From NCBI GenBank assembly GCA_025454955.1, contig JALONL010000006.1:284198-348197 (forward strand): a stretch of DNA of 64,000 nt, written 5' to 3'. Position 1 is the first letter of the stretch, and each line of letters starts with the position of its first letter. The position numbers and the translations under genes were made by a program. The stretch is from Bacteroidia bacterium (GTDB lineage: Bacteria; Bacteroidota; Bacteroidia; Palsa-965). The notes beneath the pieces were generated by a model. It saw only the letters and a program-made list of their open reading frames with translations. It did no database searches and was not told the DNA's origin. This document shows positions 6,092 through 38,669 of this stretch, piece after piece.

Positions 6092-6564
6092 CAGCGCGAA
6101 ATATCTACCACTTCAAACTGCATCATGCCCGAAGGAACTGTTACATCGCACACATCGCCCACCTTGCGGCCAAGAAGTCCTTTGGCAATGGGCGAGTTGA
6201 TGGATATTTTGCCCGATTTAAGATCGGCTTCGTTTTCGGGCACCAGCGTGTAGCTCATCCTGGCGCCATTCTTGGTGTTTTTAACCGTCACTTTACAAAG
6301 TATCAGCACTTTGGAAGTGTCGAGCTGGCTTTCATCCACAATGCGGGCATTGCTTACCAGTTCTTCCAGTTTAGAAATTTTGAGCTCCAGCATTCCCTGG
6401 GCATCCTTGGCTGCATCGTATTCGGCGTTTTCAGATAAATCGCCTTTATCGCGGGCTTCAGCAATCTGACGGGAAATGCTCGAACGCTCTTTGGTTTTCA
6501 GAAAATGCAATTCGTCTTTCAGCTTGCGCAGACCCTCTTCGGTAACATAAGTAATTTGTGACAT
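6091..6564 (-). CDS. greA: Transcription elongation factor GreA
   Basis: A 157-aa ORF. MSQITYVTEEGLRKLKDEL...GDLSENAEYDAAKD... is the canonical GreA coiled-coil plus FKBP-like C-domain. Its start overlaps the HIT stop. Confidence 0.9.
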   Translation of the reverse strand: MSQITYVTEEGLRKLKDELHFLKTKERSSISRQIAEARDKGDLSENAEYDAAKDAQGMLELKISKLEELVSNARIVDESQLDTSKVLILCKVTVKNTKNGARMSYTLVPENEADLKSGKISINSPIAKGLLGRKVGDVCDVTVPSGMMQFEVVDISR

Positions 6565-6754
6565 ACGATTTAAGTGTATGTGAGTAACTCAATGGAAAGC
6601 AGAAAGAGAATCCCGGTGTTTTTACACACCGGGACTCTCTTCTTGATTTACAAATATACACATTCAGGTAAAAAAGTCAAGTCCTTAATGTGTCAAAATT
6701 AACATCGGGGAATATTTAATCTATTGAATAACAAATACATACAAACTACCCGGA

Positions 6755-9700
6755 TTAATACGCATCCAGATCAAGCGGACGCATTACCCCAAACCATTTC
6801 AGTATCTTCTCTCCCACCCCGGGAACTTCCACATGAATAATATATAAACCGCTGGCCAACGGTATACCGGCCTGATTTTTCAAATCCCAGTCGAGCGAGG
6901 TAATCTGCGAATCGTCTTTGGTGTAGGTTCTTACCAGCGTGCCGCTTACGGTGTAAATCCTTATTCTGCACTTATCGGGCAGGTTGGTGATTTTTACGCG
7001 GTTGTCGAGCTGGTTTTTCTCGTAGCCCGAATAGGCGTAGTAAGGATTGGGCACCACGTTAATCAGGTCGAGCGCATTAACGGCGGCGTTTTGGTTTTGG
7101 GTAGCCACTTTCAGGTTTCGGGTATTGAAAGTGTACATCGGGTTGTTTCTGTTTTGAACGGGGGTGGCGGTGCCGGCGCTGTCGGTGGCCATTATCACGT
7201 TTCCGCCTGCGGGATTCATGCCGTTGTAAAAACGCTTGTAGGGCTTGGCCACACGCAGGCGCACACGGGCATCGCAGGGCAGCGGCGAACCGTTGTAATT
7301 CCAGTTGTGTGCAGCATAATCGCGGTCGAGCATCGGAATGCTTACCCACATGGCATCGGCCCAGATTTCGCGGCGGTACGTATTGGCCAGCGGCGATTGC
7401 ATGATGTCTATCATCGTTTTGCCCATGTCGTAAGCCGGAATGTCTCTCAGCCTGCCGTCGAGCGAGGGATCGATGCCGCTGAACACCGCGTTTCCGTTGT
7501 GGCCGAATACGTAGAGATAATGCATTCCGCCCCAGAGCACATTGTTAAACTGCGTCATTTCGTTGGCGCTCGGATTCCAGAGCATATCGCGGCCGTTTTC
7601 GGCAGCAAGGCCGGTGTTTTCGGAAAAGGCCATGTTGAGCCGCTCACCGGTTTCCACGTTTATGGCATAGCCCGGAAACCAGCCCATGCCCGTGCTGCTG
7701 ATGAGGTTGGCTTCTGCCGCATTGTTCTGCGTGCCCTGCTTGTCAACCGAAGGCGAATTGCGCAGCGTAAATGCTTCGCGCTGGCCCAGATTCATCTGCT
7801 TCACCGGGCCCGACTCAAACACAGGCACCCGCGTCCATTTCGATTTATCGTTCGTGAAAACGATGTCCACGCTGGCAATGTTCTCCAACTTGTTTGCCGA
7901 AAGCGATACCGCATTGTTCAGCGCAGGCCCGGCCGGATTGCAAATAGTGGTGGCCGAGGGCGAAGGATTAAGCGCACACATGCGATACGGTGCCCAGGTG
8001 CCGTCAATCAGTTTTTCAAATTCCTGCTGCTCGTCGAACCACGTTCCGCCGTACTGAAACTGCCGTTCATCGTCCCAGAAAATCCGGCAGGGATCAGTAG
8101 TATCGCCCCGCACCGTGCCCGAACGAATCCAGTTGCCAGGCTGTTGCCCGTCGCGGTCTTTCACGCCACTCAGCCAGCGTTTGGTTTCATCGCTGAATGT
8201 GATGTTGGCTTCCAGCACACCGTTTTTATCGGGGTTAAACTGCCAGCCCGGATTCTGTACCTGGCTCACGGTTATGGATAAACCAAGATCAGGAATCAAC
8301 TGCTCGTTGGCAAAAATGCTGGCCATGGAAATGGCACGGTCTGATACGGCCACCACACGGTTTACCGGAGTGGTTTGACGAAGTTCCCATCGTGCAGTAT
8401 CGGTTACAGTATATTTTGAATACGGGTTATTAATCAGTCGCAATTCAAAATCGCCCTCGGGCACGTTAAGCGGGTCAATCACTTTTATATTCACCGGCCC
8501 GCGTCCTGCCGCATAGGTAATCATATCGGCCCTGCTGGTGCCGCCATTGTTTACGGTGGCTGCATTTAAAATGGCAAGTTCCGATGCCGGGGTGAGATCA
8601 ATAACCTGATTGCCGTTTCCGCAACCTTCCACCCGCGTAATTTCAGGCCCTGAGCCATACTGCGAGCTTTGGAATGTGCCACCCAGTTCGGGCGAAGGAA
8701 TGTGCGGAATGGCAGTATATTTTACAATGTTTCCGCGACCGGCCAGATATGGCTTTTTCTGCCCGATGTTCGACGGTTTGTTCGGATTAAGCGTATCGAA
8801 CGATTCTTCGAGGTATTTTAAATATTCATTCTGTGCATAAGCGCGCACAGTGTAGTAATACGTTTTATGATTCACCAAACGCCGGTCGCCGCTGGCAAAA
8901 GCATCTTCACGAATGCTGAACGAATGTTGTATGCCTTTATCGTCGGCCTGCAAGGTCATATCCATTGGCACTTCCATTCCAAGCGACGCGTCGAGAGTGC
9001 GGTTTACCAGTTGGGCAATTCCGTTGCGCACATCGCACTGGGCCACTAAGCGGGCTTTGTCGGCATCATACACATCCGTTGGGCTTACCGTTTCGTCTTT
9101 CAGTTGAAAAATCTGATAGCCTTCAAAGTTGTAGGTGGTATCAAGTCCTGCTCCGCCGTAGCGTGTAACCAGATTGTGATAGGCCACAATATTCGCATCG
9201 GTGGTGCTGAAATTTCCGAGGTAATTATTGCTTGAAGGCGAATTCTTGAGGTAAATCACAATTTCTTTATCGAGTTCCTGAATATCCATATCAGGCGCAC
9301 GCGGGCCTTCGAGTGTGCGGAAACAGGAATTGAAAAGTGTTTGTGCCTTATCGTCGGTTACACGCAGCAGTTCAACCGATGCCAGCGGCCCGCCCGAGGC
9401 GGCACGGGCCCATACGGCACCTACGGTGATATAATTTACTTCACCCGGCTCCAATGTAAATGGGCCGGCCGAGGTGAGCATACGGCGGTCGTCGGGCGTA
9501 TTACCGGCCGTTACTTCTGTCCAGGGAGTAGTGCTGAATTGCGGATCGGTAGAACCCGGAAACATGAAATTGGCCGGTTGCGATCCACCATAGCCATTGC
9601 CTCCATACGTAATGGGTGTGCCGTCTTTCCAAAAGCCGCTCAGGTAGTTGTAATAATGCGTGGCATTTTGCGGCTCGCCAATTACCGACTCGTTATTGTT

Positions 9701-10837
9701 ATAATACACATATTTCGACATAATGATCTGCTCGCCCGTTTCGTCAGTCATTCCATCGCGGTCATTGTCCTCCCCATCAATCGCATCGGCCAGCGGCCCT
9801 TCGAAAAAGTCGAGACCAAATGCCGGAGGATTGGCGCCATAAGTGCCCAGCGAGGGTTGCGGGTTTCCTCCGTCGTTCGACACGCCGTTGTAAGTATAGC
9901 CCAAACCACGCTGTACATCGCAACCCACGTAATCGTCGAGGTAAAATCCCAGATCAGAATCCACCCATTGTCCGAAATACGTTTCTTCCAGTCTTACTGT
10001 ACTCCGGTTAATGATCTGATAGGTGTAAAAAGTCATGTTATTAATTTCATCGTTTGTGCCAAATGCAAAAGCCTGCGCACGTATTTCGAGGCCAATGGCT
10101 TCGCCGCCGGTTTGCGTGTGTATATTGCCACGATCGTTAAATACCCACCATAAATTCTGATCGCCAAACAACTGGTTTTTCGAGCAGTTGGCCTGGCCGG
10201 TTAAGTTAAATGCGGGATACTCGCATTGCTCCCACTCGTAAACGCCGTTGTTATTGTGGTCGGCAAACGGAGCCAGAAACTGCAACTGACCTAAAGCCAC
10301 ATTACCGTTGCCCGGCCAGTTGATAATATTGTTTGGCACAGTGTAGCCGATATAAAGATTTGGGTTTTCGCACCAGGCGGCAAAATCTTCCACCTCCTTT
10401 CTCGAGATTTCATAAATTTTATTGAACTGATTGCAGATGTCTGCATCTGTAGAAGCATTGTTATCGAGCGGGCCTGGAAAGAAATCGTTTCCTGCCTGAC
10501 GATACGTTTGTGCAGCCACTTTCAGTTGTCCGCCCGCATCCAATCCGCCGATCCACAGCGACGATGCAAACGAAGAGTGGGCACGGCTGCCTTTGGGAAT
10601 TTCGTAACGCGGCGAGTTGGTAAGATCCCACCACATATCACCACCATTGTAAATGGTAGTGCGCACGTTGTTTATGTCGAGATCGGTTTGTGCCGAAGCC
10701 GGTGTGCAGGACGAGGCCACTCTCAGGTCGGAAGCCGGTTGCGCCATCATACGGTTTCTTCCGGCGCCGCCCTCACGGGCGTGTGCAGCAAAACCCATCA
10801 GGGCAAAGGCAATAATTGTTGGGAAATAATTCTTCAT
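6755..10837 (-). CDS. Large secreted surface protein (1360 aa) with signal peptide and C-terminal T9SS type-A sorting domain; paralog of 12290..16393
   Basis: The N-terminal signal (MKNYFPTIIAFALMGFAAHA) and a C-terminal ~90 aa (VVPNPYYAYSGYE...IRIYTVSGTLVRTY...LASGLYIIHVEVPGVGEKILKWFGV) match the Por_Secre_tail pattern (PNP..., SGLYfv). The protein aligns along its whole length with the second giant ORF. Confidence 0.7.
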   Translation of the reverse strand: MKNYFPTIIAFALMGFAAHAREGGAGRNRMMAQPASDLRVASSCTPASAQTDLDINNVRTTIYNGGDMWWDLTNSPRYEIPKGSRAHSSFASSLWIGGLDAGGQLKVAAQTYRQAGNDFFPGPLDNNASTDADICNQFNKIYEISRKEVEDFAAWCENPNLYIGYTVPNNIINWPGNGNVALGQLQFLAPFADHNNNGVYEWEQCEYPAFNLTGQANCSKNQLFGDQNLWWVFNDRGNIHTQTGGEAIGLEIRAQAFAFGTNDEINNMTFYTYQIINRSTVRLEETYFGQWVDSDLGFYLDDYVGCDVQRGLGYTYNGVSNDGGNPQPSLGTYGANPPAFGLDFFEGPLADAIDGEDNDRDGMTDETGEQIIMSKYVYYNNNESVIGEPQNATHYYNYLSGFWKDGTPITYGGNGYGGSQPANFMFPGSTDPQFSTTPWTEVTAGNTPDDRRMLTSAGPFTLEPGEVNYITVGAVWARAASGGPLASVELLRVTDDKAQTLFNSCFRTLEGPRAPDMDIQELDKEIVIYLKNSPSSNNYLGNFSTTDANIVAYHNLVTRYGGAGLDTTYNFEGYQIFQLKDETVSPTDVYDADKARLVAQCDVRNGIAQLVNRTLDASLGMEVPMDMTLQADDKGIQHSFSIREDAFASGDRRLVNHKTYYYTVRAYAQNEYLKYLEESFDTLNPNKPSNIGQKKPYLAGRGNIVKYTAIPHIPSPELGGTFQSSQYGSGPEITRVEGCGNGNQVIDLTPASELAILNAATVNNGGTSRADMITYAAGRGPVNIKVIDPLNVPEGDFELRLINNPYSKYTVTDTARWELRQTTPVNRVVAVSDRAISMASIFANEQLIPDLGLSITVSQVQNPGWQFNPDKNGVLEANITFSDETKRWLSGVKDRDGQQPGNWIRSGTVRGDTTDPCRIFWDDERQFQYGGTWFDEQQEFEKLIDGTWAPYRMCALNPSPSATTICNPAGPALNNAVSLSANKLENIASVDIVFTNDKSKWTRVPVFESGPVKQMNLGQREAFTLRNSPSVDKQGTQNNAAEANLISSTGMGWFPGYAINVETGERLNMAFSENTGLAAENGRDMLWNPSANEMTQFNNVLWGGMHYLYVFGHNGNAVFSGIDPSLDGRLRDIPAYDMGKTMIDIMQSPLANTYRREIWADAMWVSIPMLDRDYAAHNWNYNGSPLPCDARVRLRVAKPYKRFYNGMNPAGGNVIMATDSAGTATPVQNRNNPMYTFNTRNLKVATQNQNAAVNALDLINVVPNPYYAYSGYEKNQLDNRVKITNLPDKCRIRIYTVSGTLVRTYTKDDSQITSLDWDLKNQAGIPLASGLYIIHVEVPGVGEKILKWFGVMRPLDLDAY

Positions 10838-11107
10838 ACGCTCAAAAAATTAATGAGTGATACAATAGCGTATTGATCAAATGGTCTGTTTCAAAGACAC
10901 ATTTAATGAATAAAAAGGGGGGATGAAAAACGGTTCATTAAAGAACCTGCGGGGATTAGCCGGCCGGGGATGGCCGCTGCAAAAAACAATAATAACCGGG
11001 GATACTTATTATCTTCTTAATAAACGATGATACAAATAAAACATGCCTCACTTCAACAATCAACCGCATTCACACATCCGGCAGGAAGTGCTTCACAAGT
11101 GGGTAAA

Positions 11108-11146
11108 AAAAAGGCATCCCTGAAAAATTCAGGGATGCCATTGTAC
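11108..11146 (-). terminator. Rho-independent terminator after the PorV-like gene
   Basis: Minus-strand read: GGCATCCCTGA-ATTTT-TCAGGGATGCC followed by TTTTTT. It lies immediately 3' of the stop at 11164. Confidence 0.6.
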
Positions 11147-11163
11147 TTTTTATTGTGTTGTGC

Positions 11164-12246
11164 TTACAGATTTATCCTTGCACCGAAACTATGAACCCCG
11201 TTAAACGGATTGGTAGCACGGTAAGAATAATCGATAGCGAAGGTTGAACCACGCTTGGAGAACGGAAGTTCGAGTGTAATACCGGCAGAGGGGCCGGTGA
11301 AAGCGGTGGTACGGGTTTCTTCGTCCAGAATACCTGCTTCGTAATCGTAACCGGCACGAATCATAAGCATGGAGCGCCATGCATATTCAACGCCCAAACG
11401 GTAGTTGTCTTTCTGGAAAGAGTTCGACACGAAGTTACCCGCCACAGTAATGCGGTTATTCTTCATCGAGGTGCTGTCTTTCGAGAAGTAGAAATCGTAA
11501 GAACCACCGATGTTGATGAGTGTGGGCAATTCGAAATCTGATGAACGCTGCTCAATGGTCATTGAATAGGTTCCCGACGGAGCCACACCGCGGAACGAAA
11601 GACCGTCGCCGCTGAAGCGCATACGGGGCCCTACGTTGCGAAGCGCAATACCGAATTTCAACTGCTCATACTTACCGGTTACGTACTGAATACCGGCATC
11701 AATGGCCACACCGCGTGCAGCCACATCGGCTGTTGACTGGGAAATGGCACGGAGTACGATACCACCGTAGATATTTTCGGAGAAGCCTTTGGCGTAAGAG
11801 AGGCCGATGTTGGTAAAGTTCGGACGGAAAGTACCGATACCGCCTTCGGGAAGGTCGGTGGTGGTGATCGGAATATCACCGAAATCCATCGACATTACAC
11901 CGAGACCAATAGCACCGGTTTCGCCCACACGCTGGGTAAAGCCGAATGAATTGATGTTGATTCCGGCACCTGAGAGCCAGTTGGTACGGCAAAACATAAG
12001 CTCAGTGCGCTTTGTAAATGCAGTACCGGCCACGTTAAAGTACATAGCTTCCAGGCCACGGATACCGGATGTATTGGCTCCGGCCCAACCTGATGAACGC
12101 GCCCAGGGATTTATCAGCAGTTCGCTGGCACCGGCCTGTCCGGCTCGGTCTTCGTTACCTGCCTGCAGGTTGCCGGCCGAACCGGCCAGCAACGCTGCTG
12201 CAAGAATAGAGGCAAGGACTTTATGCTGTTTCATGATCTTGTGCAA
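11164..12246 (-). CDS. porV: T9SS outer-membrane beta-barrel protein, PorV/PorQ (LptO) family, FadL-like
   Basis: A 360-aa ORF with a signal peptide. The N-terminal motif ELLINPWARSSGWAGANTSG resembles the PorV hallmark (FLLIsPDARsgGMGDaGvA). It has an alternating beta-strand pattern and is sandwiched between two T9SS-cargo genes. Confidence 0.6.
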   Translation of the reverse strand: MHKIMKQHKVLASILAAALLAGSAGNLQAGNEDRAGQAGASELLINPWARSSGWAGANTSGIRGLEAMYFNVAGTAFTKRTELMFCRTNWLSGAGININSFGFTQRVGETGAIGLGVMSMDFGDIPITTTDLPEGGIGTFRPNFTNIGLSYAKGFSENIYGGIVLRAISQSTADVAARGVAIDAGIQYVTGKYEQLKFGIALRNVGPRMRFSGDGLSFRGVAPSGTYSMTIEQRSSDFELPTLINIGGSYDFYFSKDSTSMKNNRITVAGNFVSNSFQKDNYRLGVEYAWRSMLMIRAGYDYEAGILDEETRTTAFTGPSAGITLELPFSKRGSTFAIDYSYRATNPFNGVHSFGARINL

Positions 12247-12289
12247 TAGAATGTTCTAAAATGGTCTGTCTGTTTCTGTTCCCTGCTTC

Positions 12290-15200
12290 TTAATAAGCAT
12301 CGAGGTCAAGCGGACGCATTACGCCAAACCATTTCAGGATTTTTTCACCCACACCGGGCACCTCTACGTGGATAATGTAAAGACCGCTGGCCACAGGAAT
12401 ATTGGCCTGGTTCTTCAGATCCCAGTCGAGTGATGTAATCGGTGAGTCTTTGGTGAATGTACGTATCAGTGTACCGCTTACCGTGTAAATGCGAATTGTA
12501 CACTTATCGGGCAGGTTGGTAATCTTGATACGGTTGTCGAGCTGGTTGGTCTCGTAACCCGAGTACGCATAGTACGGGTTGGGCACCACGTTAATCAGAT
12601 CAAGTGCATTCTTGGCAACCGTCTGATCTGATTTGGATGTTTTCAGATCGCGGGTGGTGAATGCATACATCGGGTTGTTAGCGTTCTGAATAGCAGGCTG
12701 TCCGGGGCCACCGGCCGTGTCGGCAGCATTAATAATGTTGCCGCTCAGGTTATTGATACCTGTGTAGAAACGACGGTAGGGCTTGGCTACACGCAGACGT
12801 ACTTTTACGTCGCAGGGCAGCGGTGAGCCGGCATAGTTAAAGGTGTAGCTTGCGTAGTCGTTATCCAGCACCGGAATGTTTACCCACATAGCATCAACGA
12901 AAATTTCGCGGCGCTCGGTGTTCACATTGGTAGAGGTGAGGATACGCTGCATGGTCACACCACGGTCGTAGGCCGGAATATCGCTGAGCTGACCATTCAG
13001 GTTCGGGTCAGAGTTACCCGAGTATCTGCGGTTGCCATTGTGGCCAAACACGTAGATATGGTGGAAACCACCCCAGAGAAGATCGCCAAAGGTTGTGCTA
13101 ACGTTTGCGGTGGGATTCCAGAGCATGTCGCGGCCGTTTTCGGCACCGAGTGCTGTGTTTTCACCAAAAGCCATATTGAGGCGCTCGCCTGTTTCTACGT
13201 TAATGGCGTAGCCGGGGAACCAGCTCATACCCGTTGCGGCTGTAAGATCGCCGGTAGCGTTGTCATAGCCCGGATCACCGGCTTTACGACCCCACTGATC
13301 TACTGAGGGAGAGTTGCGAATGGTAAACGCTTCGCGCTGACCCAGGTTAAGCTGACGAACAGGTCCAACCTCAATTACCGGCACACGGGTCCACTTCGAG
13401 CGGTCGTTGGTAAATACAACGTCCACGTTGGAAAGGAAACTCATACGTGTCTGGGTGAGGAGAGCCGCAGTAGTCGGGAATGCCGGACCGGCATCGTAGC
13501 AAATAGTTGTTTGATTGGGTGTCGGGTTGGTGGCGGCAAGGCGATAAGGAGCCCAGGTACCGTCAACCACACCTTCATATACACCATCTCTGTCTATAGG
13601 TACGTTTGCCTGTTCTTCGTCGTCAAGCTGAGCCTGACAGGGTCCCTGAGGTCCGGGGTTTGTACCCGCACGAATCCAGTTGAAAGCGTTCTGTCCGTCG
13701 GTATCCACAATACCCGAGAGCCAGCGGCGTGTTGTCTCACTGAAAGTCATGCTTGACTCAAGGTAGCCGTTGCGGTCGGGGTTGTTTTGCGAACCCGGAT
13801 CCTGCACCTGCGAAATGGTAATTGACATACCCAGATCAGGCAGAAGCTGTTCGTTGGCAAAAACACTTACCATGTTAATGGCACGCTCAGAGGTGGCAAT
13901 TACCGTGGGCGATGAAGCATTGGTTACATCAATCAGTTGCCAGTTGGCAGTGGTAGCCACAGAGAAATTACTGTACGGGTTGTTGATGAATTTCACCTGA
14001 TAATCACCTTCGGGTACGTTCAGCGGGTCGATCACTTTTACGTTAATCGGGCCACGGCCGTTTTCGTAGGTAATTTCGTTTAAGCGGCTGGTACCACCCT
14101 GATCTACTGAGGTCTGAGCCATAATGGCATCAATAGAGGCCTGGGTAAGATCAAGTACGTTGTTACCGTTACCACAACCTTCAATACGGGTAATTTTCGG
14201 ACCTGAACCATAAGATGAATTCAGACCGGTTCCGCCAAGTTCGGGTGAAGGAATGTGGGGAATTACCGAATACACACGCACGTTCTTACGACCTGCAAGG
14301 TAAGGCTTCTTCTGGCCAATGTTTGAGGGCGAAAGCGGGTTGAAAGGATCGTAGGTTACATCGTCGTAAGTAAGGTAACGGTTGTAAGAATACGACAACG
14401 CCATGAAGTAGTACGTCTTGTGGTTTACCAAACGACGGTCGCCAGCAGCAAACGCATCTTCGGTAATGCTGAACGACTTCACGATGCCACCATCTTCAGC
14501 AATCAGGGTCATGTCCTGCGGAACATCAGCGTTAAGTGCTTCGTTACGGTTCAGGTTCACAAGCTGGGTAACGCCGTTACGAATATCGCACTGGGCCACC
14601 AAACGGGCACGGTCGGGATCGTAAAGGTCGGCGGTGGTTACAGACTGATCTTTCAACTGGAAGATCTGATAACCTTCGAAGTTGAAGGTGGTATCGAGCG
14701 GTGAACCCACGAGGGCGCTGTAGGTAATTGAAGGGTCAGTAGCTTCGTAAGACTCAAGGTAGTTGTTGCTGGTGGGCTTGTTGCTCAGGTAAAGCACTAC
14801 CTGACGGTCGAGTTCCTGGAAGTCCATATCCGGAGCATCAGGGCCATCGAGTGTACGGAAGCAGGCATTGAACAGGCTCTGGGCTTTGTCGTCGGTAACG
14901 CGGAGCAGTTCTACAGAAGCTGCAGGACCACCGCTACCGGCACGGGCCCAAACCGCACCTACAGTTACATAGTTTACCGCACCGGGCTGGAGGGTGAAGG
15001 GTCCGGCCGACTGGATGAAGCGACGGTCGGCAGGAGTATTGTTCTCGGTAATTTCAGACCATACCACCGGGTTGTTGGGATCGGTATCGCCGGGGAACAT
15101 GAAGTTGTAGGGCTGCGCGCCACCATAACCGTTTCCGCCATAAGTTACAGGAGTACCGTCTTTCCAGAAACCGGTAAGGTAGTTGTAAATGTGAGTACCG

Positions 15201-16393
15201 TTTTCAGGGTTACCGGTAACCGAGAAGTCGTTGTTGTAGTAAATAAACTTAGCCATGATGATCTGCTCACCGGCTTCGTCGGTCACACCGTCACGGTCAT
15301 TGTCCACTCCGTCAAACGGATCGGCGGCAGGTCCTTCGAAGAAGTCCATACCAAACGCAGGCGGGTTGGCACCGTAAGTACCCAGGCTGGGCTGCGGGCT
15401 GCCACCGTCGTTTTGTGTACCGTTATAGGTATAACCCAAACCACGTACTACGTCGCAACCAACATAGTCATCGTTGTAAAGACCAAGGTCAGAATCCACC
15501 CACTTACCGAAATAAGTATTGTTGAGTGTAATTGACGAACGGTTAATTACCTGATAGGCGTAGAAGGTCATGTTGTTGATCTCGTCGTTGGTGGCAAAGG
15601 CAAAAGCCTGAGCGTGAATTTCGAGACCAATCGGGTTGGCACCTGTTTCAGAGTGTACGTTACCTTTATCGTTGAATACCCACCAGAGAGTCTGGTCGCC
15701 ATAAAGCTGGAATTTTGTACATCCCAGGCTGTTGGTAAGGTCGTAACCCGGATATTCACCGGCTGCCCATTCATACACACCGTTCTGGTTAATATCGGCA
15801 AACGGAGCCAGATAACGGCCCTGATTCAGCGATACATCACCGTTACCCGGCCAGTTCTGGATGGTAAGCGGCACGGTATAACCCGGAAATGCAGAAGGAT
15901 CGGCATACCATGCGGCATAGTCTTCTACTTCCTTACGGGTAATTTTCCAGTGACGATCGTAAGCCACGCACTGATCGGCTTCGATAGATGCCGTAGTGGT
16001 ATCGAGCGGACCGGGCCAGAAGTCGTTACCTGTCTGGCGATAGGTCATAGCAGCCACTTTAAGCTGGCCACCCGCATCAAGACCACCAATCCAGAGCGAT
16101 GCAGCGAATGAGGAGTGAGCACGGCCGCCTTTGGGAATTTCGTATTTGGCGTTGCTCAGATCCCACCACATATCGCCGCCACCAAGGATGGTTGTGCGTA
16201 CGTTGTTGATGTCAAGGTCTGTTTGTGAAGTAGCCGGTGTGCAGGACGACGCAAGTTGTTGCGACGAGTTGCCACGGTTTCCTGAATATCCCTGGCGGTT
16301 GCCAGAAGCACCGTTTTCACGGGCTCCGGCGGTAACCGCAAATGCCATCGCAGCTGCAACAGGGAGAATGTAGTATGGACGCTTGGTATTCAT
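12290..16393 (-). CDS. Large secreted surface protein (1367 aa) with C-terminal T9SS type-A sorting domain; paralog of 6755..10837 (PorU-like role possible but unproven)
   Basis: It has a signal peptide, the same internal motifs as the first giant (SSCTPA.SQTDLDINNVRTTI, WIGGLDAGGQLKVAA, DxDxDG-like Ca-binding stretch DGVDNDRDGVTDE) and a near-identical C-terminal sorting domain. It lies directly upstream of the PorV-like gene, as in porU-porV arrangements. Confidence 0.7.
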   Translation of the reverse strand: MNTKRPYYILPVAAAMAFAVTAGARENGASGNRQGYSGNRGNSSQQLASSCTPATSQTDLDINNVRTTILGGGDMWWDLSNAKYEIPKGGRAHSSFAASLWIGGLDAGGQLKVAAMTYRQTGNDFWPGPLDTTTASIEADQCVAYDRHWKITRKEVEDYAAWYADPSAFPGYTVPLTIQNWPGNGDVSLNQGRYLAPFADINQNGVYEWAAGEYPGYDLTNSLGCTKFQLYGDQTLWWVFNDKGNVHSETGANPIGLEIHAQAFAFATNDEINNMTFYAYQVINRSSITLNNTYFGKWVDSDLGLYNDDYVGCDVVRGLGYTYNGTQNDGGSPQPSLGTYGANPPAFGMDFFEGPAADPFDGVDNDRDGVTDEAGEQIIMAKFIYYNNDFSVTGNPENGTHIYNYLTGFWKDGTPVTYGGNGYGGAQPYNFMFPGDTDPNNPVVWSEITENNTPADRRFIQSAGPFTLQPGAVNYVTVGAVWARAGSGGPAASVELLRVTDDKAQSLFNACFRTLDGPDAPDMDFQELDRQVVLYLSNKPTSNNYLESYEATDPSITYSALVGSPLDTTFNFEGYQIFQLKDQSVTTADLYDPDRARLVAQCDIRNGVTQLVNLNRNEALNADVPQDMTLIAEDGGIVKSFSITEDAFAAGDRRLVNHKTYYFMALSYSYNRYLTYDDVTYDPFNPLSPSNIGQKKPYLAGRKNVRVYSVIPHIPSPELGGTGLNSSYGSGPKITRIEGCGNGNNVLDLTQASIDAIMAQTSVDQGGTSRLNEITYENGRGPINVKVIDPLNVPEGDYQVKFINNPYSNFSVATTANWQLIDVTNASSPTVIATSERAINMVSVFANEQLLPDLGMSITISQVQDPGSQNNPDRNGYLESSMTFSETTRRWLSGIVDTDGQNAFNWIRAGTNPGPQGPCQAQLDDEEQANVPIDRDGVYEGVVDGTWAPYRLAATNPTPNQTTICYDAGPAFPTTAALLTQTRMSFLSNVDVVFTNDRSKWTRVPVIEVGPVRQLNLGQREAFTIRNSPSVDQWGRKAGDPGYDNATGDLTAATGMSWFPGYAINVETGERLNMAFGENTALGAENGRDMLWNPTANVSTTFGDLLWGGFHHIYVFGHNGNRRYSGNSDPNLNGQLSDIPAYDRGVTMQRILTSTNVNTERREIFVDAMWVNIPVLDNDYASYTFNYAGSPLPCDVKVRLRVAKPYRRFYTGINNLSGNIINAADTAGGPGQPAIQNANNPMYAFTTRDLKTSKSDQTVAKNALDLINVVPNPYYAYSGYETNQLDNRIKITNLPDKCTIRIYTVSGTLIRTFTKDSPITSLDWDLKNQANIPVASGLYIIHVEVPGVGEKILKWFGVMRPLDLDAY

Positions 16394-16458
16394 TTTCGCT
16401 TCCTTTATTTAATTCGTTCGCTTCTTGTGTTTTGTGTATTGATCTATACAAACCGGGA

Positions 16459-19400
16459 TCAGAAGTCAAGCATGATGCCCAGACGAATACGGCGGGGGAT
16501 GCTGTAGAATGTCGGATCAGCCATTTTCACAGAATACAGATCGCGGAACGATTGGGGATCGTTTTGCGCAGCGATGAGCGCCTGAGTGCTGGCATCAGAC
16601 AGGTAGCCATCGTCGTTAGCGTTACCGGTGTAGCGGTAAACGTTAAGTACGTTTTGAGTGTTGAGGATGTTGAGCACCTGGAGGTAGATGTTCAGGGCAG
16701 CCACTTTCTGGTTGTCGCCTGAGCCCCAGGTAAGATCTACGTTCTTGTCGATACGAAGGTCGGCACGAACCTGCCAGGGCAGACGTGAACCGTTAATCAG
16801 ACCATCGAGCAGCGGACGGGCAGCCACACCGAACTGAGCTTCGGGAGTAGCGTTCGACTGGCGGGTGTAGGGTGTACCAGAACCGGCACGCAGTACCAGG
16901 TTGGCACCTACGTTGTCGAACACACGCACTTCGCGTTTGTTTTTGCCCATGGTCCACACGGGGCCACGGTAGTTGGCACCCGAACCAAAACGGTAGTCGA
17001 TGTTGGTAACGATGGCATGACGCTGGTCGAAGCTGAGCGGCAGGGTGGTGCGCAGGTTGGGCTGGCCGGCTGCTACGAGGTTCTGAGCTTCGGTGGCACC
17101 TGAACCGGTACCATCGGCAAACTGCAGGGTATAGCTGGCGGTAAGCTGTACGCCACCGGTACGACGGAGGTCATAAGCCACGGTGAAACCTTTTACTGTA
17201 CCGAAGTCGATGTTACCATAAGTAAGGTAGTTCGACGGGTAAGCAAACTGAACAGCCACTACCTGAATCATGTTTCGGAGTTCGCGGTAGAAACCAGAGA
17301 TGGTGATGGCTGAGTTCTTACGCTCGTTCAGGGTTTGTGTAAAACCAAGCTCGTAGTCGGTGGTGCGCTGCGGCTGGAGGTTCGGGTTGTTGTTAAACAA
17401 ACCTACACGGTTCTGAATGTAGAGGTACTGAATCGGGTCGAGACGGAAACCGTCGGTGGGACGCTGGGTAAGTACATCGTAGTGAGCAAAGAAGTTGGCT
17501 TCTTCCGAAATCGGGAACGCAAAAGCAATACGCGGCATAATGTTGAGCTGGGGCTCATAGTCGCGGAATGATTTGGCATTTACCACAGTCTGGCTGGGAT
17601 CAACCAGGTAAGGAGTAATACGGCCGGTTGAGGTAGCCTGGGCAATAAGAGAAACGTCAGAGATTTCGTTACCCTGAGCATTGTACCAGGTGTTCTCATC
17701 GCGGTAACCTACTACTGCGGTGGGGTTGTTCAGGTCGTTTACATATACTACGTAATCGCTGCCCATGTTGGTGGGGTGAGAGAAGTTTGTGGCTTCCGAC
17801 ACAGTTTTGGTTTCGTAGAATACATAAGGATCGCGGAGTACCTGCTGGTTGGCATCGAAACGGTCGATACGAACACCCACGTTGAACTTAATGTCTTTGA
17901 AGTCGAATTTATCCTGAATATAACCGGCCATGTAAATGGGGCGGAAAGAACCGATGGTGCGGCTCAGGTTACCATTGGCATCGGTGCCGGTGAGGAAATC
18001 ATCGAACGAAGGATTGCCTTTGATTTTTTTGCCGGTATGATCGTAACCGTAATAAGAAACGATGTTGCTGCCGTCGAGCAGAAGGTCTTCGGCGCTGAAC
18101 ATGTTCAGATTAAAGAAGGTCGGATCCATGTTGTCGATATCGATCCACTCGGTACCGGTGGCACTCAGGCCCATTGCTTCGCGCACAGAGCGGTCGAAAT
18201 AACGCTGCTGGCTGCCATCGTAAAGACGCTCGTAGAGGTAAGCGTTGTAGGTTCCGTAGTTTACTTCGAGGGGGTTGGCCAGATCAAGCTGTGTAAGGTG
18301 GAAGTTGGCCAACTGACGCATACGTGTCCAGAGGTCGATGGCGCTCAGACTGAATTCACTTTCGTCGCGCTGCTCGAACTCGAAACCAACCTGAATGGCG
18401 TGGTTCTTAATATCGGCAGAGAAGCTGGTGAATACGCGGAACTGACGACGATCCTGCTTGAGGTAACCCGGGAACTGACGGCCGGTATTCCACCAGAGCG
18501 AGTAAACGCTGGGGGCGCGTGAGCCGTTAAGCAAACCGAGAAGAGCCGGTACCTGATCGTAATTCTGAATCTGGCCGGTGAAATTATCGAATACGTAATC
18601 GGTGTAGTTGGTACCGAGCGGGTTCGAAGAGTTTGAACCGTCGAAAACAAGTGCCGAATCAGCGAAAGCCTGCTGTACAAAACCGCTTACCACATCGCCA
18701 TTGGGCAGGGTAACGGTTCCGGGCTGGAAGAAACGGGTTTTGTACTGGGTGAATTTACCCACATGTCCATAACGGAAATAATCGTCGCGGTGGGTATCAT
18801 CTTCGCGGGTAAAGGTGTAACGTGTGTAACCTACCTGCAGGGTATAGAACGCGTTCTTGATATTGGAAGCTGATTCCTGGTTGGTATTCCCGAAACGCTG
18901 CGTAAGACGGGCATATACACGCCAGGTGTTCTGGGTAACCTGCGGGTTGTTTACCGGGTTGAAAAGTGCATATTCATAGGTAAACGAGTGTTCGCGGCTG
19001 TAGTCGATAGAACCACCGAAGGTAATATTCAGGTTGGCGGTGGGTTTGAAGTCGATTTTGGCATTCAGACGCAGTGCACGTTCGGCCACGTTCTGGCGGG
19101 CCGCAATTTTTTCGAGATCATTCATACGAACGAATTCCGAGTTACGTACAAAGCCGGTGCCCAGAGGAGCCGGACGAAGCGGATTGGCTTCGAGGTTACG
19201 AAGCACATCGTCTTTTACCTTATATACACCAATAGCCGAAGGGTTGGCATCGCGCTCAGACACACCTTCACCGGAAAGAATAAAGCCAAGCACAGGCGAT
19301 TTGTTGCCTGCCGAGTCTTTACGCATCCAGATGGGGCCGCCCACGCTGAAACCTACGAAGTTGTAGCCAAAATCGTCGAGTACTTCGGAAGTGATTAATT

Positions 19401-20106
19401 CCACACCACCGAAATACTGGCTTTGCGGACCGCGTGTGGTAATGTTAATCACACCGCCGGCAGCATCGCCAAACTGGGCAGGAACACCACCGGTAATAAC
19501 GCTCACCTGTTCGATTGCCTGCTGCGGCATATTGGCAGAACCAATAACGCGCTGACCGTCGATAAAGTAAGCAGTACCGCCCGAACGTGTACCGCGCATG
19601 TTGATAGCTCTTCCTTCGTCGGCCTGATATACACCGGCTGTGGTAGAAGCTACTGAGTTAATGTTTTTGGAGGGCATGGCAAGGAACTCCTCGCGGGTTA
19701 CCGTACCACCCGATTTGGTATCGGGGTCGATAAGCGGTTCCTTATACTCCACAATTTCCACCTGCGTAAGCTGGGTGGCTGTGGCGTTCATTTCGATGGT
19801 GATATAGGTTGTTTTCAATTCTGAAACAACAATATCACGCATTTCGGTTGTCTGATAACCGGTGTACTGGGCTTTCACCGTGTACTTACCGGCATCAATC
19901 GGTTTAAGGGTAAAGTCACCGTTAATGTCGGTAACAGCCCCTGTGACATTTACACCATTGAGAGAAGCGGTAATGACAGCAAAGGGAATACCTTCCCTTG
20001 TGGCTTTGTCAATTGCTTTCCCTTTAATGGCACCGCCACTCTGGGCCCAGGAAACGCCCGTGCCTGCAATGAGCAGAACAAGTGCAACGTAGAGTTTTCG
20101 CAGCAT
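16459..20106 (-). CDS. TonB-dependent-receptor-like outer membrane protein (1215 aa) with N-terminal CarboxypepD_reg domain, plug domain and C-terminal beta-barrel
   Basis: It has a signal peptide. The stretch GAIKGKAIDKATREGIPFAVI...DINGDF..KPIDAGKYTVKAQYTGY is CarboxypepD_reg-like. A TonB plug follows (AINMRGTRSGG...IDGQRV...IEQVSVITGGVPAQFGDAAGGVINITT), and the protein ends in a C-terminal Phe (…GIMLDF). Confidence 0.8.
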   Translation of the reverse strand: MLRKLYVALVLLIAGTGVSWAQSGGAIKGKAIDKATREGIPFAVITASLNGVNVTGAVTDINGDFTLKPIDAGKYTVKAQYTGYQTTEMRDIVVSELKTTYITIEMNATATQLTQVEIVEYKEPLIDPDTKSGGTVTREEFLAMPSKNINSVASTTAGVYQADEGRAINMRGTRSGGTAYFIDGQRVIGSANMPQQAIEQVSVITGGVPAQFGDAAGGVINITTRGPQSQYFGGVELITSEVLDDFGYNFVGFSVGGPIWMRKDSAGNKSPVLGFILSGEGVSERDANPSAIGVYKVKDDVLRNLEANPLRPAPLGTGFVRNSEFVRMNDLEKIAARQNVAERALRLNAKIDFKPTANLNITFGGSIDYSREHSFTYEYALFNPVNNPQVTQNTWRVYARLTQRFGNTNQESASNIKNAFYTLQVGYTRYTFTREDDTHRDDYFRYGHVGKFTQYKTRFFQPGTVTLPNGDVVSGFVQQAFADSALVFDGSNSSNPLGTNYTDYVFDNFTGQIQNYDQVPALLGLLNGSRAPSVYSLWWNTGRQFPGYLKQDRRQFRVFTSFSADIKNHAIQVGFEFEQRDESEFSLSAIDLWTRMRQLANFHLTQLDLANPLEVNYGTYNAYLYERLYDGSQQRYFDRSVREAMGLSATGTEWIDIDNMDPTFFNLNMFSAEDLLLDGSNIVSYYGYDHTGKKIKGNPSFDDFLTGTDANGNLSRTIGSFRPIYMAGYIQDKFDFKDIKFNVGVRIDRFDANQQVLRDPYVFYETKTVSEATNFSHPTNMGSDYVVYVNDLNNPTAVVGYRDENTWYNAQGNEISDVSLIAQATSTGRITPYLVDPSQTVVNAKSFRDYEPQLNIMPRIAFAFPISEEANFFAHYDVLTQRPTDGFRLDPIQYLYIQNRVGLFNNNPNLQPQRTTDYELGFTQTLNERKNSAITISGFYRELRNMIQVVAVQFAYPSNYLTYGNIDFGTVKGFTVAYDLRRTGGVQLTASYTLQFADGTGSGATEAQNLVAAGQPNLRTTLPLSFDQRHAIVTNIDYRFGSGANYRGPVWTMGKNKREVRVFDNVGANLVLRAGSGTPYTRQSNATPEAQFGVAARPLLDGLINGSRLPWQVRADLRIDKNVDLTWGSGDNQKVAALNIYLQVLNILNTQNVLNVYRYTGNANDDGYLSDASTQALIAAQNDPQSFRDLYSVKMADPTFYSIPRRIRLGIMLDF

Positions 20107-20242
20107 AGTTTAATTCTGTTTCGTTGTACCTTTTAGATATAGGTCGTGCAAATTGAAGTCGGTAAATATAGAAAGTTTTGTTTTTGACCTGCAAAAGAAG
20201 TTTTAACAAATCTTTGCAGAATCTAAAACGAAGCACGAAAAC

Positions 20243-20704
20243 CTATTGCAGGCCTTTGGGCTTACCAAGTAACTCACTCATTATTACCGCATTCTGCCAG
20301 TCGGGAGAATCTGCTGCGGGGAGGGATGTGGAACTGTTTGCAGCAAAATTTAATCCGGCCGGGGTATTAGGGGGGGATGTATTCCGGTGTTCGAACTCGT
20401 AAAGTTCGGATTCGATGCTTAACTCGCCGTCACTTGCCATTTCATCAACCACTTCTTCCTGGCTGTATGACGCATACGTAGGATTTGGTGTTTGATAAGA
20501 AGCTTGTGGAGGCTGAGCCTGCACCTGATTTGAAAGAACGACTTGCCGCAGCCATTGATCAACCTGTTGCTGTGATGCCTGACGCTGCTGCGGCACCTGG
20601 GATGAACCCGTTGATTGTTTCTGCGCTTTAACCGCATTCCGGTACATGCGGTATATTAAAACAAAGATAATAATAGCTATGTAGAAATAATATCCCGGAG
20701 ACAT
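20243..20704 (-). CDS. Hypothetical membrane-anchored Q-rich protein (153 aa)
   Basis: An N-terminal TM helix (YYFYIAIIIFVLIY) is followed by a Gln/Pro-rich low-complexity region. Confidence 0.4.
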   Translation of the reverse strand: MSPGYYFYIAIIIFVLIYRMYRNAVKAQKQSTGSSQVPQQRQASQQQVDQWLRQVVLSNQVQAQPPQASYQTPNPTYASYSQEEVVDEMASDGELSIESELYEFEHRNTSPPNTPAGLNFAANSSTSLPAADSPDWQNAVIMSELLGKPKGLQ

Positions 20705-20774: not shown

Positions 20775-21131
20775 CTAATTTCTGGAAAACCAGCGAAAAA
20801 GGAAGAATTTCCGCTTGTTTTCGTTGTGTCTTTTCGATTTACGGGCGGTTTTCTTCATTTGTTTGCGGGTACGCTTGTCGTTATTGTACTTTTTGCGGTA
20901 CTCCTTGCGCGCCTTTTCGTCGATCATTTTCTTTTTGCGCTCGTCTTTCCACTTCTGCTTGGCTTTCTGGCGTTCGAGTTTGCTGCTGGGGGCTTTTTGT
21001 TCGGTTCCCGAACTGCCCGAATTTCCCGAACCTCCGCCCTCGCCGCCTGCGGTTTGGGCCGTGGCGAGAAGCGGCAATAAAAACAGGCTCAGCCACACAA
21101 CCCGTTTCAGGTATTTACGTCTGTAACTCAT
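20775..21131 (-). CDS. Hypothetical secreted lysine-rich basic protein (118 aa)
   Basis: A signal peptide (VVWLSLFLLPLLATAQ) is followed by a Gly/Ser-rich spacer, then an extremely K/R-rich tail (KQKWKDERKKKMIDEKARKEYRKKYNNDKRTRKQMKKTARKSKRHNENKRK). Confidence 0.45.
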   Translation of the reverse strand: MSYRRKYLKRVVWLSLFLLPLLATAQTAGGEGGGSGNSGSSGTEQKAPSSKLERQKAKQKWKDERKKKMIDEKARKEYRKKYNNDKRTRKQMKKTARKSKRHNENKRKFFLFRWFSRN

Positions 21132-25313: not shown

Positions 25314-25387
25314 AGTGTGCGGGTAAAATTATCCGGTAAAAACAGGCGAAGGTTTTGGCAATGGGTCACGGGAAAGCAAACGCAGAA

Positions 25388-26890: not shown

Positions 26891-26898
26891 TTCAACCC

Positions 26899-27495
26899 AT
26901 GAATCAACCCGATTACCACGCCGCAGCCTCGTATATGCTGCAAAAGCTTGATATGAGCCTGCCGGCGAATTATCATTACCACAATACCGCCCATACGGTT
27001 CAGGTACTTGATTCGGTGGAGATCATTGCACGCGGCGAAAATATTGCGGAGGATAAATTATTGCTGCTTAAAACTGCTGCGGTGTATCACGATTGCGGTT
27101 TTATGGAACAGTATCAGACTAATGAACCCGTAGCCGCCCGTATTGCAGGAGAAGTATTGCCTCAATTCAATTATTCGGCCGATGAGATTGAATTTGTGAA
27201 GCGGCTCATTCTGGTTACCGCAATTGGTGCCGAACCTGCTGATATTTTCGAAGAAATTATGAAGGATGCCGATTTCGATTATCTCGGTACCGAAAATTAT
27301 GCGCCGGTTTCGTTGCTGCTTAAAAAAGAATGGGAAACCCAGGGTATGACCTACTCCACTGCCGACTGGTTTTTGTTGCAACAAAAATTCCTTACCAATC
27401 ATCGCTATTACACAGCTACTGCGCAGCAACTACGCAACGCAGGCAAGCAAAAAAACCTCGCCGATATTGAACAGCAACTCATGGCCTTGCATTAG
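26899..27495 (+). CDS. HD-domain metal-dependent phosphohydrolase (candidate cNMP phosphodiesterase)
   Basis: A 198-aa ORF with H..H...D and the AAVYHDCGF HD motif. It is divergent from the two cyclase genes. Confidence 0.6.
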   Translation: MNQPDYHAAASYMLQKLDMSLPANYHYHNTAHTVQVLDSVEIIARGENIAEDKLLLLKTAAVYHDCGFMEQYQTNEPVAARIAGEVLPQFNYSADEIEFVKRLILVTAIGAEPADIFEEIMKDADFDYLGTENYAPVSLLLKKEWETQGMTYSTADWFLLQQKFLTNHRYYTATAQQLRNAGKQKNLADIEQQLMALH

Positions 27496-27510
27496 TTGAA
27501 TACCACTACG

Positions 27511-27551
27511 AAAAAAGAGGCTGTCTCAAAAGGTCGAGACAGCCTTTTTTT
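27511..27551 (+). terminator. Rho-independent terminator of the HD gene (the hairpin is built partly from the left IS inverted repeat)
   Basis: AGGCTGTCTC-AAAAGGTC-GAGACAGCCT followed by TTTTTTT, 16 nt after the HD stop. Confidence 0.6.
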
Positions 27552-27610
27552 GTTTGTACTCGTTTTTGCCACAGAGTTGGCAATCTTTTCTAAAAAAAGA
27601 GTTTCCCCTT

Positions 27611-29167: not shown

Positions 29168-29291
29168 AACGCAAGACTAATCAACTTGCAAAGAATGGGA
29201 GCTTCGGCTCCTTTCTTTTTTTCAACACGTTTTAAATAAAAAGAGGCTGCCCCTTTTGAGACAGCCTCTTTTTTATGGGCGTTTCATTGGT

Positions 29292-30128: not shown

Positions 30129-30217
30129 AAAGTGTGGTGTTTGGACGTGTACAAAAATAGAATTTTCGGCGAATCGGTTGCCGTTATACTATCAAATCAC
30201 TTACTGCGGCCATATTC

Positions 30218-36927: not shown

Positions 36928-36939
36928 ATTCAGAGGCGA

Positions 36940-38652: not shown

Positions 38653-38669
38653 GAAAATTTATTGACCTG

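Follow-up and report, generated by a model that had tools for sequence, protein, structure and literature searches.

A conserved gene trio of Bacteroidota encoding a TonB-dependent transporter, a giant protein with a PorZ-like T9SS C-terminal domain and a PorV/PorQ-family barrel

Cargo proteins of the T9SS are thought to be anchored to LPS after cleavage of their C-terminal domain (CTD) when this domain is of type A, or held by PorP/SprF when it is of type B. To our knowledge, only the machinery proteins PorU and PorZ stay on PorV/PorQ barrels via an intact CTD. Furthermore, Bacteroidota have TonB-dependent transporters (TBDTs) with surface-exposed lipoprotein partners, as in SusC-SusD and BtuB-BtuG. 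PorZ is translocated by the T9SS, keeps its CTD uncleaved and is held on the surface by PorQ, a 14-strand barrel of the PorV family for which a role in picking up PorZ at the translocon was proposed (PMC10947112). The CTD of PorU is also retained and is bound by PorV (PMC10202324). For type B CTDs, cognate barrel-cargo gene pairs are established (PMC12618676), the dedicated barrel governing both the secretion and the surface localisation of the cargo (PMC12618676; PMC9143113).

Here, we analysed a 64-kb window (the whole stretch of DNA under study, 64,000 nucleotides) in which four ORFs lie on the minus strand, in the order TBDT of 1215 aa, giant protein (giant A), PorV/PorQ-family barrel and second giant protein (giant B) (Table 1). 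An earlier note had described them as four large genes encoding a plug-and-barrel protein, a 360-aa barrel of the PorV family and two paralogous proteins of ~1360 aa. The ORF check confirmed the four genes at their stated coordinates, with intergenic gaps of 65, 43-55 and 326 bp, and the family assignments were borne out by the searches presented below. The four genes had also been viewed as a single unit. The first three do constitute a conserved trio, whereas giant B, located between the barrel gene and greA, is a lineage-specific duplicate, probably transcribed separately since it lies behind a gap of 326 bp and a strong terminator that follows the barrel gene. In Bacteroidota, the promoter consensus consists of TTTG at -33 and TAnnTTTG at -7, and we take the similar segment that we read directly from the sequence upstream of the TBDT gene to be a putative promoter of the trio. 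A scan for sigma-70 promoters gave counts that did not exceed those obtained with shuffled sequence and was disregarded.

Table 1. Position of the features of the locus in the window.
Feature	Coordinates	Strand	Remarks
Putative Bacteroidota-type promoter of the trio	20163..20195	-	TTTG, 21 nt, TATATTTA; start codon of the TBDT gene ~57 nt downstream
TBDT-like outer-membrane protein, 1215 aa	16459..20106	-	Pfam domains above gathering thresholds
Giant A, 1367 aa, in-operon copy	12290..16393	-	Signal peptide; PorZ-like T9SS CTD at the end
CTD of giant A, ~aa 1262-1367	12293..12610	-	Invariant VPNPYYAYS.YE insert; conserved C-terminal RP.DLD.[YF] extension
PorV/PorQ-family outer-membrane barrel	11164..12234	-	356 aa from the ATG at 12234
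Intrinsic terminator, end of the three-gene unit	11113..11139	-	12-bp stem (7 GC pairs), 3-nt loop, T8 tail
Giant B, 1360 aa, paralogue of giant A	6755..10837	-	Extra copy, probably its own transcription unit
CTD of giant B	6758..7075	-	NCBIfam PorZ C-terminal region 30.4 bits; TIGR04183 17.9 bits

The first protein of the trio starts with a signal peptide, after which come an N-terminal CarboxypepD_reg-like domain (aa 27-116) and a plug (aa 135-219); its barrel is very long, with ...MLDF as last residues. Its Pfam scores are 48.8 bits for CarbopepD_reg_2 (threshold 32.2), 40 for the plug (23.9) and 38.2 for the TonB-dependent receptor barrel (27). It was assigned to the TBDTs, which are defined by a plug and a 22-strand barrel, since PF07715 and PF00593 both match above their gathering thresholds. 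A profile built from 22 orthologues retrieves from the PDB plugs, namely those of Cir and PfeA with E from 1e-11 to 1e-6, as well as N-terminal extension domains of SusC. Between the N-terminal domain and the plug, a conserved 'VEVV.YKVPLID' motif that resembles the 'EVVVTGY' box of Bacteroidota is a candidate TonB box. As in the SusC-SusD and BtuB-BtuG systems, a TBDT with an N-terminal extension of the CarboxypepD_reg type is encoded beside a large surface protein that might capture a ligand. However, the giant, which is no lipoprotein, resembles neither SusD nor BtuG, and it would reach the surface via the T9SS, with a separate barrel holding it there. A SusC/RagA-SusD pair was rejected, as the NCBIfam scan of the TBDT found no match to the SusC/RagA signature TIGR04056 and the downstream gene encodes the giant, without any SusD Pfam match. 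Furthermore, the locus gives no clue to a substrate: no regulator, SusD-like gene or catabolic enzyme was found near the trio, and the Rfam search returned no riboswitch in the whole window.

The ORF of the barrel opens at a TTG (12246, 360 aa), but translation probably starts at the ATG at 12234, which gives a clean signal peptide. The protein matches the NCBIfam PorV family model NF033709 with 146 bits (cut-off 90) from aa 39 to 359, covering positions 3-325 of the 326 of the model. A PorP/SprF protein, the other candidate, was rejected by the NCBIfam scan (no TIGR03519 match at E<=0.01). All equivalog scores are below their cut-offs, the highest being that of PorQ (NF033711, 70.1/220), followed by PorV (NF033710, 61.6/250) and PorV2 (NF052325, 48/325), and the matches to the PorV and PorQ models are restricted to the N-terminal half. 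No Pfam family, including PorV PF19572, was found at E<=0.01. The sequence taken singly matches nothing in the PDB; PorV of F. johnsoniae (6h3i_F, E=7e-16) was retrieved only with the profile of the orthologues. We propose that this barrel is the cognate shuttle or anchor of the giants. Its genetic linkage with a putative cargo recalls type B cargo and PorP/SprF-like barrels (SprB-SprF and the Fjoh pairs), but here the barrel is of the PorV/PorQ family and the putative cargo has a type A/PorZ-like CTD.

The giants are proteins of ~150 kDa, and A and B are 66% identical over their full length. Their AF2 models are confident and mostly consist of beta-strands. In giant A, the N-terminal half is predicted to contain a galactose-mutarotase-like beta-supersandwich, of the type seen in carbohydrate enzymes, as well as FN3-like domains, the body from ~aa 730 to 1260 has no counterpart among solved structures and the last ~100 aa alone resemble PorZ and PorU, as a T9SS CTD. 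The supersandwich is a weak indicator of function since this fold is also found in the P1 domain of YidC and in amine oxidases. A GH174 protein was also among the matches. In sequence searches, neither giant A alone nor a profile of 30 members matched the PDB at E<=1. Neither Pfam nor NCBIfam has a family for the giant, and we found no solved homologue and no paper on it.

A gene for a large protein with a CTD precedes that of a PorV-family barrel, as in porU-porV, and the earlier note had therefore considered that giant A could be a divergent PorU-like sortase, the giant and the barrel being a second porU-porV pair. We consider this extremely improbable. PorU is defined by a C25 gingipain-like catalytic domain with a His-Cys dyad, which the giants lack: no Pfam match, including Peptidase_C25, was obtained with either giant or with ~240 homologues among the matches listed. 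The PorU model NF033707 gives only 14.6-17.7 bits (cut-off 420), confined to the last ~80 aa, and the C-terminal half resembles PorU through the CTD only. Furthermore, the predicted fold of the N-terminal half is not of the caspase/gingipain type, no protease was among the top matches of the PDB fold searches with the giant models and the score of the barrel with the PorV equivalog model is much too low (62/250). No canonical porU, porV, porQ or porZ was found in the window.

The earlier note had assigned type A CTDs to both giants. Both indeed carry a CTD, an Ig-like 3+4 beta-sandwich of ~70-80 aa located at the extreme C-terminus and superposable on solved CTDs, but this domain is PorZ-like and its TIGR04183 scores (19.4 and 17.9 bits in the two giants) are under the cut-off of 23 of this type A model. 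PF18962 (Pfam cut-off 27) does not match the giants. In HMM comparisons, the CTD is closer to that of PorZ than to the generic type A model, and its fold is also nearest to PorZ. No other segment of the giant family is as conserved (0.82 versus 0.65), and the junction ahead of it is ordered and conserved, without a floppy linker. The last 88 aa of giants A and B share 87-100% amino-acid identity, whereas the identity of the third codon positions of the CTD is 0.5-0.62, slightly above the 0.32-0.50 of the rest of the gene. Near-identical proteins with diverged third positions point to purifying selection, and gene conversion is ruled out as the source of the near-identical CTDs. The conservation of the CTD and its similarity to those of PorZ and PorU suggest that it may be retained uncleaved.

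These data can also be viewed in another way, the giant being an ordinary cargo with its own shuttle: the barrel would ferry it, PorU would cleave the CTD, the giant would be anchored to LPS or released and the TBDT would simply be co-transcribed. We find this unlikely, although several observations are in its favor. TIGR04183 is matched at E<=0.01 by 26 of 30 relatives of the giant (best 6e-7), and NCBI labels homologues of the giant as type A sorting domain proteins. The genome clearly carries type A cargo, hence the PorU/PorV pathway is probably present, and shuttles specialised for subsets of cargo are on record (PMC12618676). A private shuttle that hands the giant to PorU for cleavage would also be expected to entail comparable conservation of the CTD. 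On the other hand, one would not expect a throwaway signal to surpass the rest of a 1360-aa protein in conservation, nor to include an insert that is invariant and a C-terminal extension that is conserved. The CTD also scores higher against the retained CTD of PorZ than against the generic model. Moreover, such a shuttle gives no account of the near-obligate linkage and co-variation of the TBDT described below.

The trio is an ancestral and vertically inherited unit of Bacteroidota, found in hundreds of species. The giant family includes more than 7600 clusters at 90% identity, and at least 596 stretches were confirmed in genomes taken as one representative per species. Sequence identity across orders is 40-65%. 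Cultured hosts were sought through further homologues, which led to MAGs and metagenome contigs only. In genomes representing other species, the complete series TBDT-giant-barrel is present at 57 of the 67 testable giant copies, which supports the dedicated unit of cargo, shuttle and receptor that the earlier note had put forward as an alternative to the sortase. Its carriers span several orders, including lineages of Flavobacteriales and Bacteroidales, and the trio is usually flanked by ahcY on one side and by greA-HIT on the other. In one locus (L001), the called genes of the TBDT (6277-10011) and of the giant (10001-14278) even overlap by 11 bases. When their pairwise-distance matrices are compared, the three proteins co-vary strongly, with r=0.95 for TBDT and giant (0.90 after controlling for GreA+HIT), a correlation that is inflated since long proteins yield less noisy distances than GreA or HIT. 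The trio occurs in lineages that abound in water, soil and sludge, among them Crocinitomicaceae, Cryomorphaceae and Lentimicrobiaceae. In most genomes, the giant is present as one copy. The arrangement of giant B is repeated in L005, and extra copies are found elsewhere in the genome in L040 and L057 as well as in L006, L009, L022, L030 and L054, where these orphan giants have no second barrel or TBDT and are surrounded by unrelated housekeeping genes.

The housekeeping neighborhood of the trio and its high conservation across orders would suit envelope biogenesis as well as nutrient uptake. The trio could be an accessory module of the envelope or of the T9SS, in which giant and barrel would be analogues of PorZ and PorQ that handle a surface glycolipid or glycan and the TBDT-like protein would be a structural or export partner. 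The likeness with PorZ-PorQ of P. gingivalis lies in the CTD, nearest to PorZ by HMM and fold, and in the barrel, whose best equivalog is PorQ. The sugar-binding-type domain of the giant, its conservation, unusually high for a surface protein, and the deeply conserved synteny without nutrient-related regulators are also consistent with this hypothesis, which we nevertheless regard as quite unlikely. PorZ is defined by two beta-propeller domains and a CTD, with an equivalog score of at least 260 bits (NF052228), whereas the giant reaches 34.8 bits and has, in place of propellers, an unrelated body made up of the supersandwich, the FN3-like domains and the unmatched region; the PorQ cut-off is also widely missed. 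Furthermore, the genes of giant and barrel are adjacent here and linked to that of a TBDT, whose intact and conserved plug is typical of gated importers, and the recurrent duplication of giants with a variable body is more readily explained by ligand diversification than by a core machine. Finally, the retention of the CTD, established for PorZ, is for the giant a prediction from sequence.

According to another hypothesis, the giants would be exported or assembled by the TBDT-like protein, as in the Oar-dependent secretion of PopC in Myxococcus, or would make up a surface coat or S-layer unrelated to transport. This appears very unlikely: the T9SS CTD already supplies an export route, most genomes hold only one giant, the S-layer match is a generic Ig-like one and the Pfam scan of the TBDT found no barrel family of the Oar type.

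We therefore tentatively favor, while stopping short of endorsing it, a model in which the T9SS exports the giant, whose uncleaved PorZ-like CTD then keeps it on the surface, bound to its own barrel and at the service of the adjacent TBDT. The three proteins, whose sequences all display a signal peptide, would cross the inner membrane via Sec. The translocon of the T9SS would then recognise the giant through its CTD, whose fold is predicted, and the co-encoded barrel, instead of or alongside the general PorV, would collect this CTD. In this model, the CTD would not be cleaved since it is PorZ/PorU-like, and it would tether the giant non-covalently to the surface, as for PorQ-PorZ and PorV-PorU. 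The tethered giant may be a partner of the TBDT for surface capture or processing, perhaps of a glycan, which is the most speculative step. Delivered by the T9SS, it would play the part that lipoproteins play for transporters of the SusC or BtuB type. It is gene linkage that suggests a role for the TBDT in this unit, and the giant may contact either the barrel or the TBDT. Extra giants, for instance giant B, would vary in their exposed body and keep a near-identical CTD, which we propose to reflect their fit to the same barrel. In a bolder version, possible but doubtful, the trio would be an ancient outer-membrane machine, the giant being permanently docked by its uncleaved CTD on private barrels that make up a third clade of the PorV/PorQ type, and physically feeding or gating a dedicated TBDT.

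No description of the trio turned up in our literature searches, and it is a previously uncharacterised three-gene module of the outer membrane. Since the giant has neither family nor solved homologue and most of its C-terminal half is unmatched in the PDB, it is a target for the discovery of structure and function. If the model is true, anchoring by an intact CTD on PorV/PorQ-type barrels would extend to ordinary surface proteins that are not part of the machinery, and PorV-family barrels would be general surface anchors beyond the attachment complex. The linkage of giant and TBDT would also tie the T9SS to TonB-dependent uptake. Hence, the trio would be a T9SS-dependent alternative to the lipoprotein-TBDT design of SusCD and BtuBG.

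Four long minus-strand ORFs, with exactly the coordinates given in an earlier note made from the sequence alone, lie within 6755-20106 (see table). They encode a TonB-dependent transporter (TBDT), two paralogous giants (A and B, 66% identical end to end) and a PorV/PorQ-family barrel. A putative promoter 5' of the TBDT gene consists of a TTTG-N21-TATATTTA motif, which resembles the Bacteroidota-type consensus. The barrel gene is directly followed by a strong intrinsic terminator (stem of 12 bp, T8 tail), with a 326-bp gap between this gene and that of giant B. From this layout, TBDT, giant A and barrel genes (the trio) likely form one operon, giant B being transcribed independently. Two small ORFs, both without Pfam match, separate ahcY from the TBDT gene: one encodes a 153-aa membrane-anchored Gln/Pro-rich protein, the other a secreted, highly basic protein of 118 aa with weak conservation at the equivalent position in three relatives' loci (L001, L004 and L071).

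Features of the window, with positions on the whole stretch
Feature	Position	Strand	Remarks
TBDT gene	16459-20106	-	1215 aa, signal peptide
Giant A gene	12290-16393	-	1367 aa
PorV/PorQ-family barrel gene	11164-12246	-	ORF span; likely start, ATG at 12234
Giant B gene	6755-10837	-	1360 aa
N-terminal motif regions of giants	16240-16330, 10690-10780
C-terminal tails of giants	12293-12320, 6758-6785
Small ORFs between ahcY and TBDT gene	20243-20704, 20775-21131	-, -
Ordinary type A cargo	62373-63980
Insertion relative to related genomes	23184-31486
IS1182 transposase	27611-29167		431 bits
Chemotaxis-like cluster and porin	35450-42859	-
eCIS-related pieces	3852-5429, 46424-47860, 47893-52770	-, +, +
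Low-GC stretch	52000-58000

In Pfam, the 1215-aa protein, previously described as TonB-receptor-like, scores above threshold with CarbopepD_reg_2, Plug and the barrel of TonB-dependent receptors. Furthermore, a profile of 22 orthologues matches the plugs of Cir and PfeA and a SusC-type N-terminal extension in the PDB. It is a genuine TBDT. An NCBIfam scan did not find the SusC/RagA signature, and neither Pfam nor NCBIfam has a family specific to this clade. The barrel passes the NCBIfam PorV_fam cut-off (146 bits for a cut-off of 90) and is far under the equivalog cut-offs of PorQ (70/220), PorV (62/250) and PorV2 (48/325), and its orthologue profile matches the solved F. johnsoniae PorV (E=7e-16). 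Hence, it represents a distinct clade within the PorV/PorQ family. The PorV-like assignment of the earlier note holds at the family level, with no PorP/SprF match in the NCBIfam scan, but below the PorV equivalog cut-off; a Pfam scan gave zero matches.

No Pfam domain scores above threshold in either giant, and neither Pfam nor NCBIfam has a family for them; HMM matches are confined to the last ~80-100 aa. This C-terminus matches the PorZ model over the C-terminal region (30-35 bits), TIGR04183 below threshold (18-19 bits, cut-off 23) and the PorU model at the C-terminus (15-18 bits). Both the PorZ region and TIGR04183 were matched at E<=0.01 in 26 of 30 diverse relatives. Since an ordinary type A cargo from the same window scores 43 bits with TIGR04183 and does not match PorZ, the PorZ-likeness is specific to the giants. 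The T9SS C-terminal domain (CTD) that the earlier note attributed to them is present, but the type A model scores below its cut-off. PDB sequence searches with a single giant or the family profile gave zero matches. AlphaFold2 models, built from 65-sequence alignments, were confident for aa 45-720 (pLDDT 79.7, pTM 0.77) and aa 700-1367 (pLDDT 85.7, pTM 0.80). In a PDB fold search, the C-terminal half gave CTD-type matches only, and no counterpart was found for ~aa 730-1260. By the fold of their CTD, the giants are predicted T9SS substrates with a new body. The idea that the upstream giant could be a PorU-like sortase is refuted at the sequence and predicted-fold level, with no C25 signal and no protease among the top fold-search matches.

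In our alignment (A1), the signal peptide of every giant-family member is immediately followed by 'A-[R/K/H]-E', in which the Glu is invariant, and then by a variable Gly/Asn/Arg-rich linker and an invariant Cys in 'A-S-C-x-P'. This region may serve as a signal for processing or sorting.

The giant family is very large and uniform. Over 7600 clusters at 90% identity match giant A, and virtually all of those listed span 1250-1430 aa and lack Pfam domains; a search from a Bacteroidales member had a similar outcome. The C-terminal half matches 610 clusters at 50% identity (E<=1e-30), and the GTDB collection, with one genome per species, contains at least 596 confirmed giant stretches. Among the best 80 of these loci, 67 giant copies had sufficient flanking DNA, and 57 of them are preceded by a TBDT orthologue and followed by a barrel orthologue. 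This makes the trio the conserved unit, in agreement with the cargo, shuttle and receptor unit offered as an alternative in the earlier note. Carriers, all retrieved as MAGs or metagenome contigs, are by record title Crocinitomicaceae, Cryomorphaceae, Salibacteraceae, Vicingaceae, Fluviicola, Lentimicrobiaceae, Prolixibacteraceae and many unclassified Bacteroidia. The trio is flanked by ahcY and small ORFs upstream and by greA and a HIT-family gene downstream; this conserved neighbourhood points to old, vertical inheritance.

Giant copies outside this order are extras: two are located 3' of greA (L040, L057) and one, as in the window, 3' of the barrel gene (L005); five are orphans amid unrelated housekeeping genes. 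One contig (PACT01000037.1, Crocinitomicaceae MAG) carries a split trio, TBDT-giant (L075) and giant-barrel-greA-HIT (L066), in opposite orientations with giant copies ~44 kb apart, a pattern suggestive of an inversion between two copies of the giant gene. The genes called for TBDT and giant in L001 share an 11-base overlap. Evolutionary distances correlate between TBDT and giant (r=0.95; 0.90 with a GreA+HIT control) and between giant and barrel (r=0.84; 0.72 with this control), with the caveat that distances between long proteins are less noisy. Near-invariant gene order, the L001 overlap and this strong co-variation argue for functional coupling within the trio.

Elsewhere in the window, an insertion between ahcY and the ACPS-PcrB genes contains a pair of class III nucleotide cyclases, of which one has a 7TMR-DISM sensor, a universal stress protein and an IS1182 transposase; the ACPS-PcrB genes adjoin ahcY in L001, L084 and L085, and one extra ORF intervenes in L002. 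A chemotaxis-like cluster (CheR, CheA with CheW domain, MCP with HAMP), here in a Bacteroidota genome, is followed by an OprB-family porin. Pieces related to an extracellular contractile injection system (eCIS), ~40 kb apart, encode a tape-measure protein of the CIS type (PF19268, 258 bits), an AAA ATPase and an eCIS_core-domain protein of 1625 aa. Directly 3' of the latter, a low-GC stretch (0.34-0.36 vs ~0.50 elsewhere), whose ORFs have no Pfam match, may be an island of effector or immunity genes gained by horizontal transfer.

Conservation of the giant is highest in its CTD (aa 1262-1367), with a mean majority-residue frequency of 0.82 vs 0.65 elsewhere in 30 relatives. It includes an invariant VPNPYYAYS.YE insert and, past its last strand, a conserved 9-aa RP.DLD.[YF] tail with an aromatic last residue. 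This tail resembles an outer-membrane-protein beta-signal and might either insert into the partner barrel or complement it. The stretch preceding the CTD is ordered and conserved, unlike a flexible linker. Over their last 88 aa, giants A and B are 87-100% identical in protein and 50-62% identical at third codon positions, the remaining gene being slightly lower (0.32-0.50). Since third positions diverged nearly as elsewhere in the gene, this similarity reflects purifying selection, and the same divergence contradicts recent gene conversion. Both paralogues are being kept compatible with something, and the one barrel encoded alongside them stands out as the candidate. The barrel may instead be a mere private shuttle, the CTD being cleaved as usual; the weak type A signal agrees with this, but the hyper-conserved CTD and the linkage to a TBDT conflict with it.

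PorU and PorZ are T9SS substrates with uncleaved CTDs that stay bound to PorV and PorQ, and it has been suggested that PorQ picks up PorZ at the translocon (PMC10947112; PMC10202324). With this biology as a template, and starting from what is shown here on the genes present, their domain and fold assignments, their synteny and their pattern of conservation, we propose that the giant would be exported by Sec, translocated by the T9SS through its PorZ-like CTD, collected by its private PorV/Q-like barrel and held on the surface by an uncleaved CTD. There, it would cooperate in uptake with the TBDT whose gene shares the operon; given its carbohydrate-enzyme-type domain, it would probably capture or process the ligand for this partner. 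No linked riboswitch (Rfam, whole window), regulator or catabolic gene hints at the ligand. Canonical porU, porV, porQ and porZ are absent from the 64-kb window, and the type A cargo suggests that the genome has them. Giant and barrel may also be a PorZ/PorQ-like envelope or attachment accessory, as the housekeeping context and high sequence conservation would allow; however, the intact gated plug of the TBDT and the repeated duplication of giants with variable body regions conflict with such a role. TBDT-mediated export of the giants, or an S-layer function, has little support.

In working mode, the proposed module would be nearest to PorZ-PorQ, although equivalog tests for both failed. Its gene order is like that of porU-porV, whereas its proteins fail the PorU and PorV tests. 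For type B CTDs, it is proven that a cargo gene can be paired with that of a dedicated barrel (PMC12618676); type B cargo with SprF-like pairs follows a similar logic in a different family. As in SusCD and BtuBG, a TBDT is paired with a surface protein, but the targeting route differs. Our literature search found no paper describing the trio. We rate it as a third clade of the PorV/PorQ family that has its cognate cargo and is coupled to a TBDT: a new variant on a known theme, relevant to specialists of the T9SS and of the Bacteroidota outer membrane.
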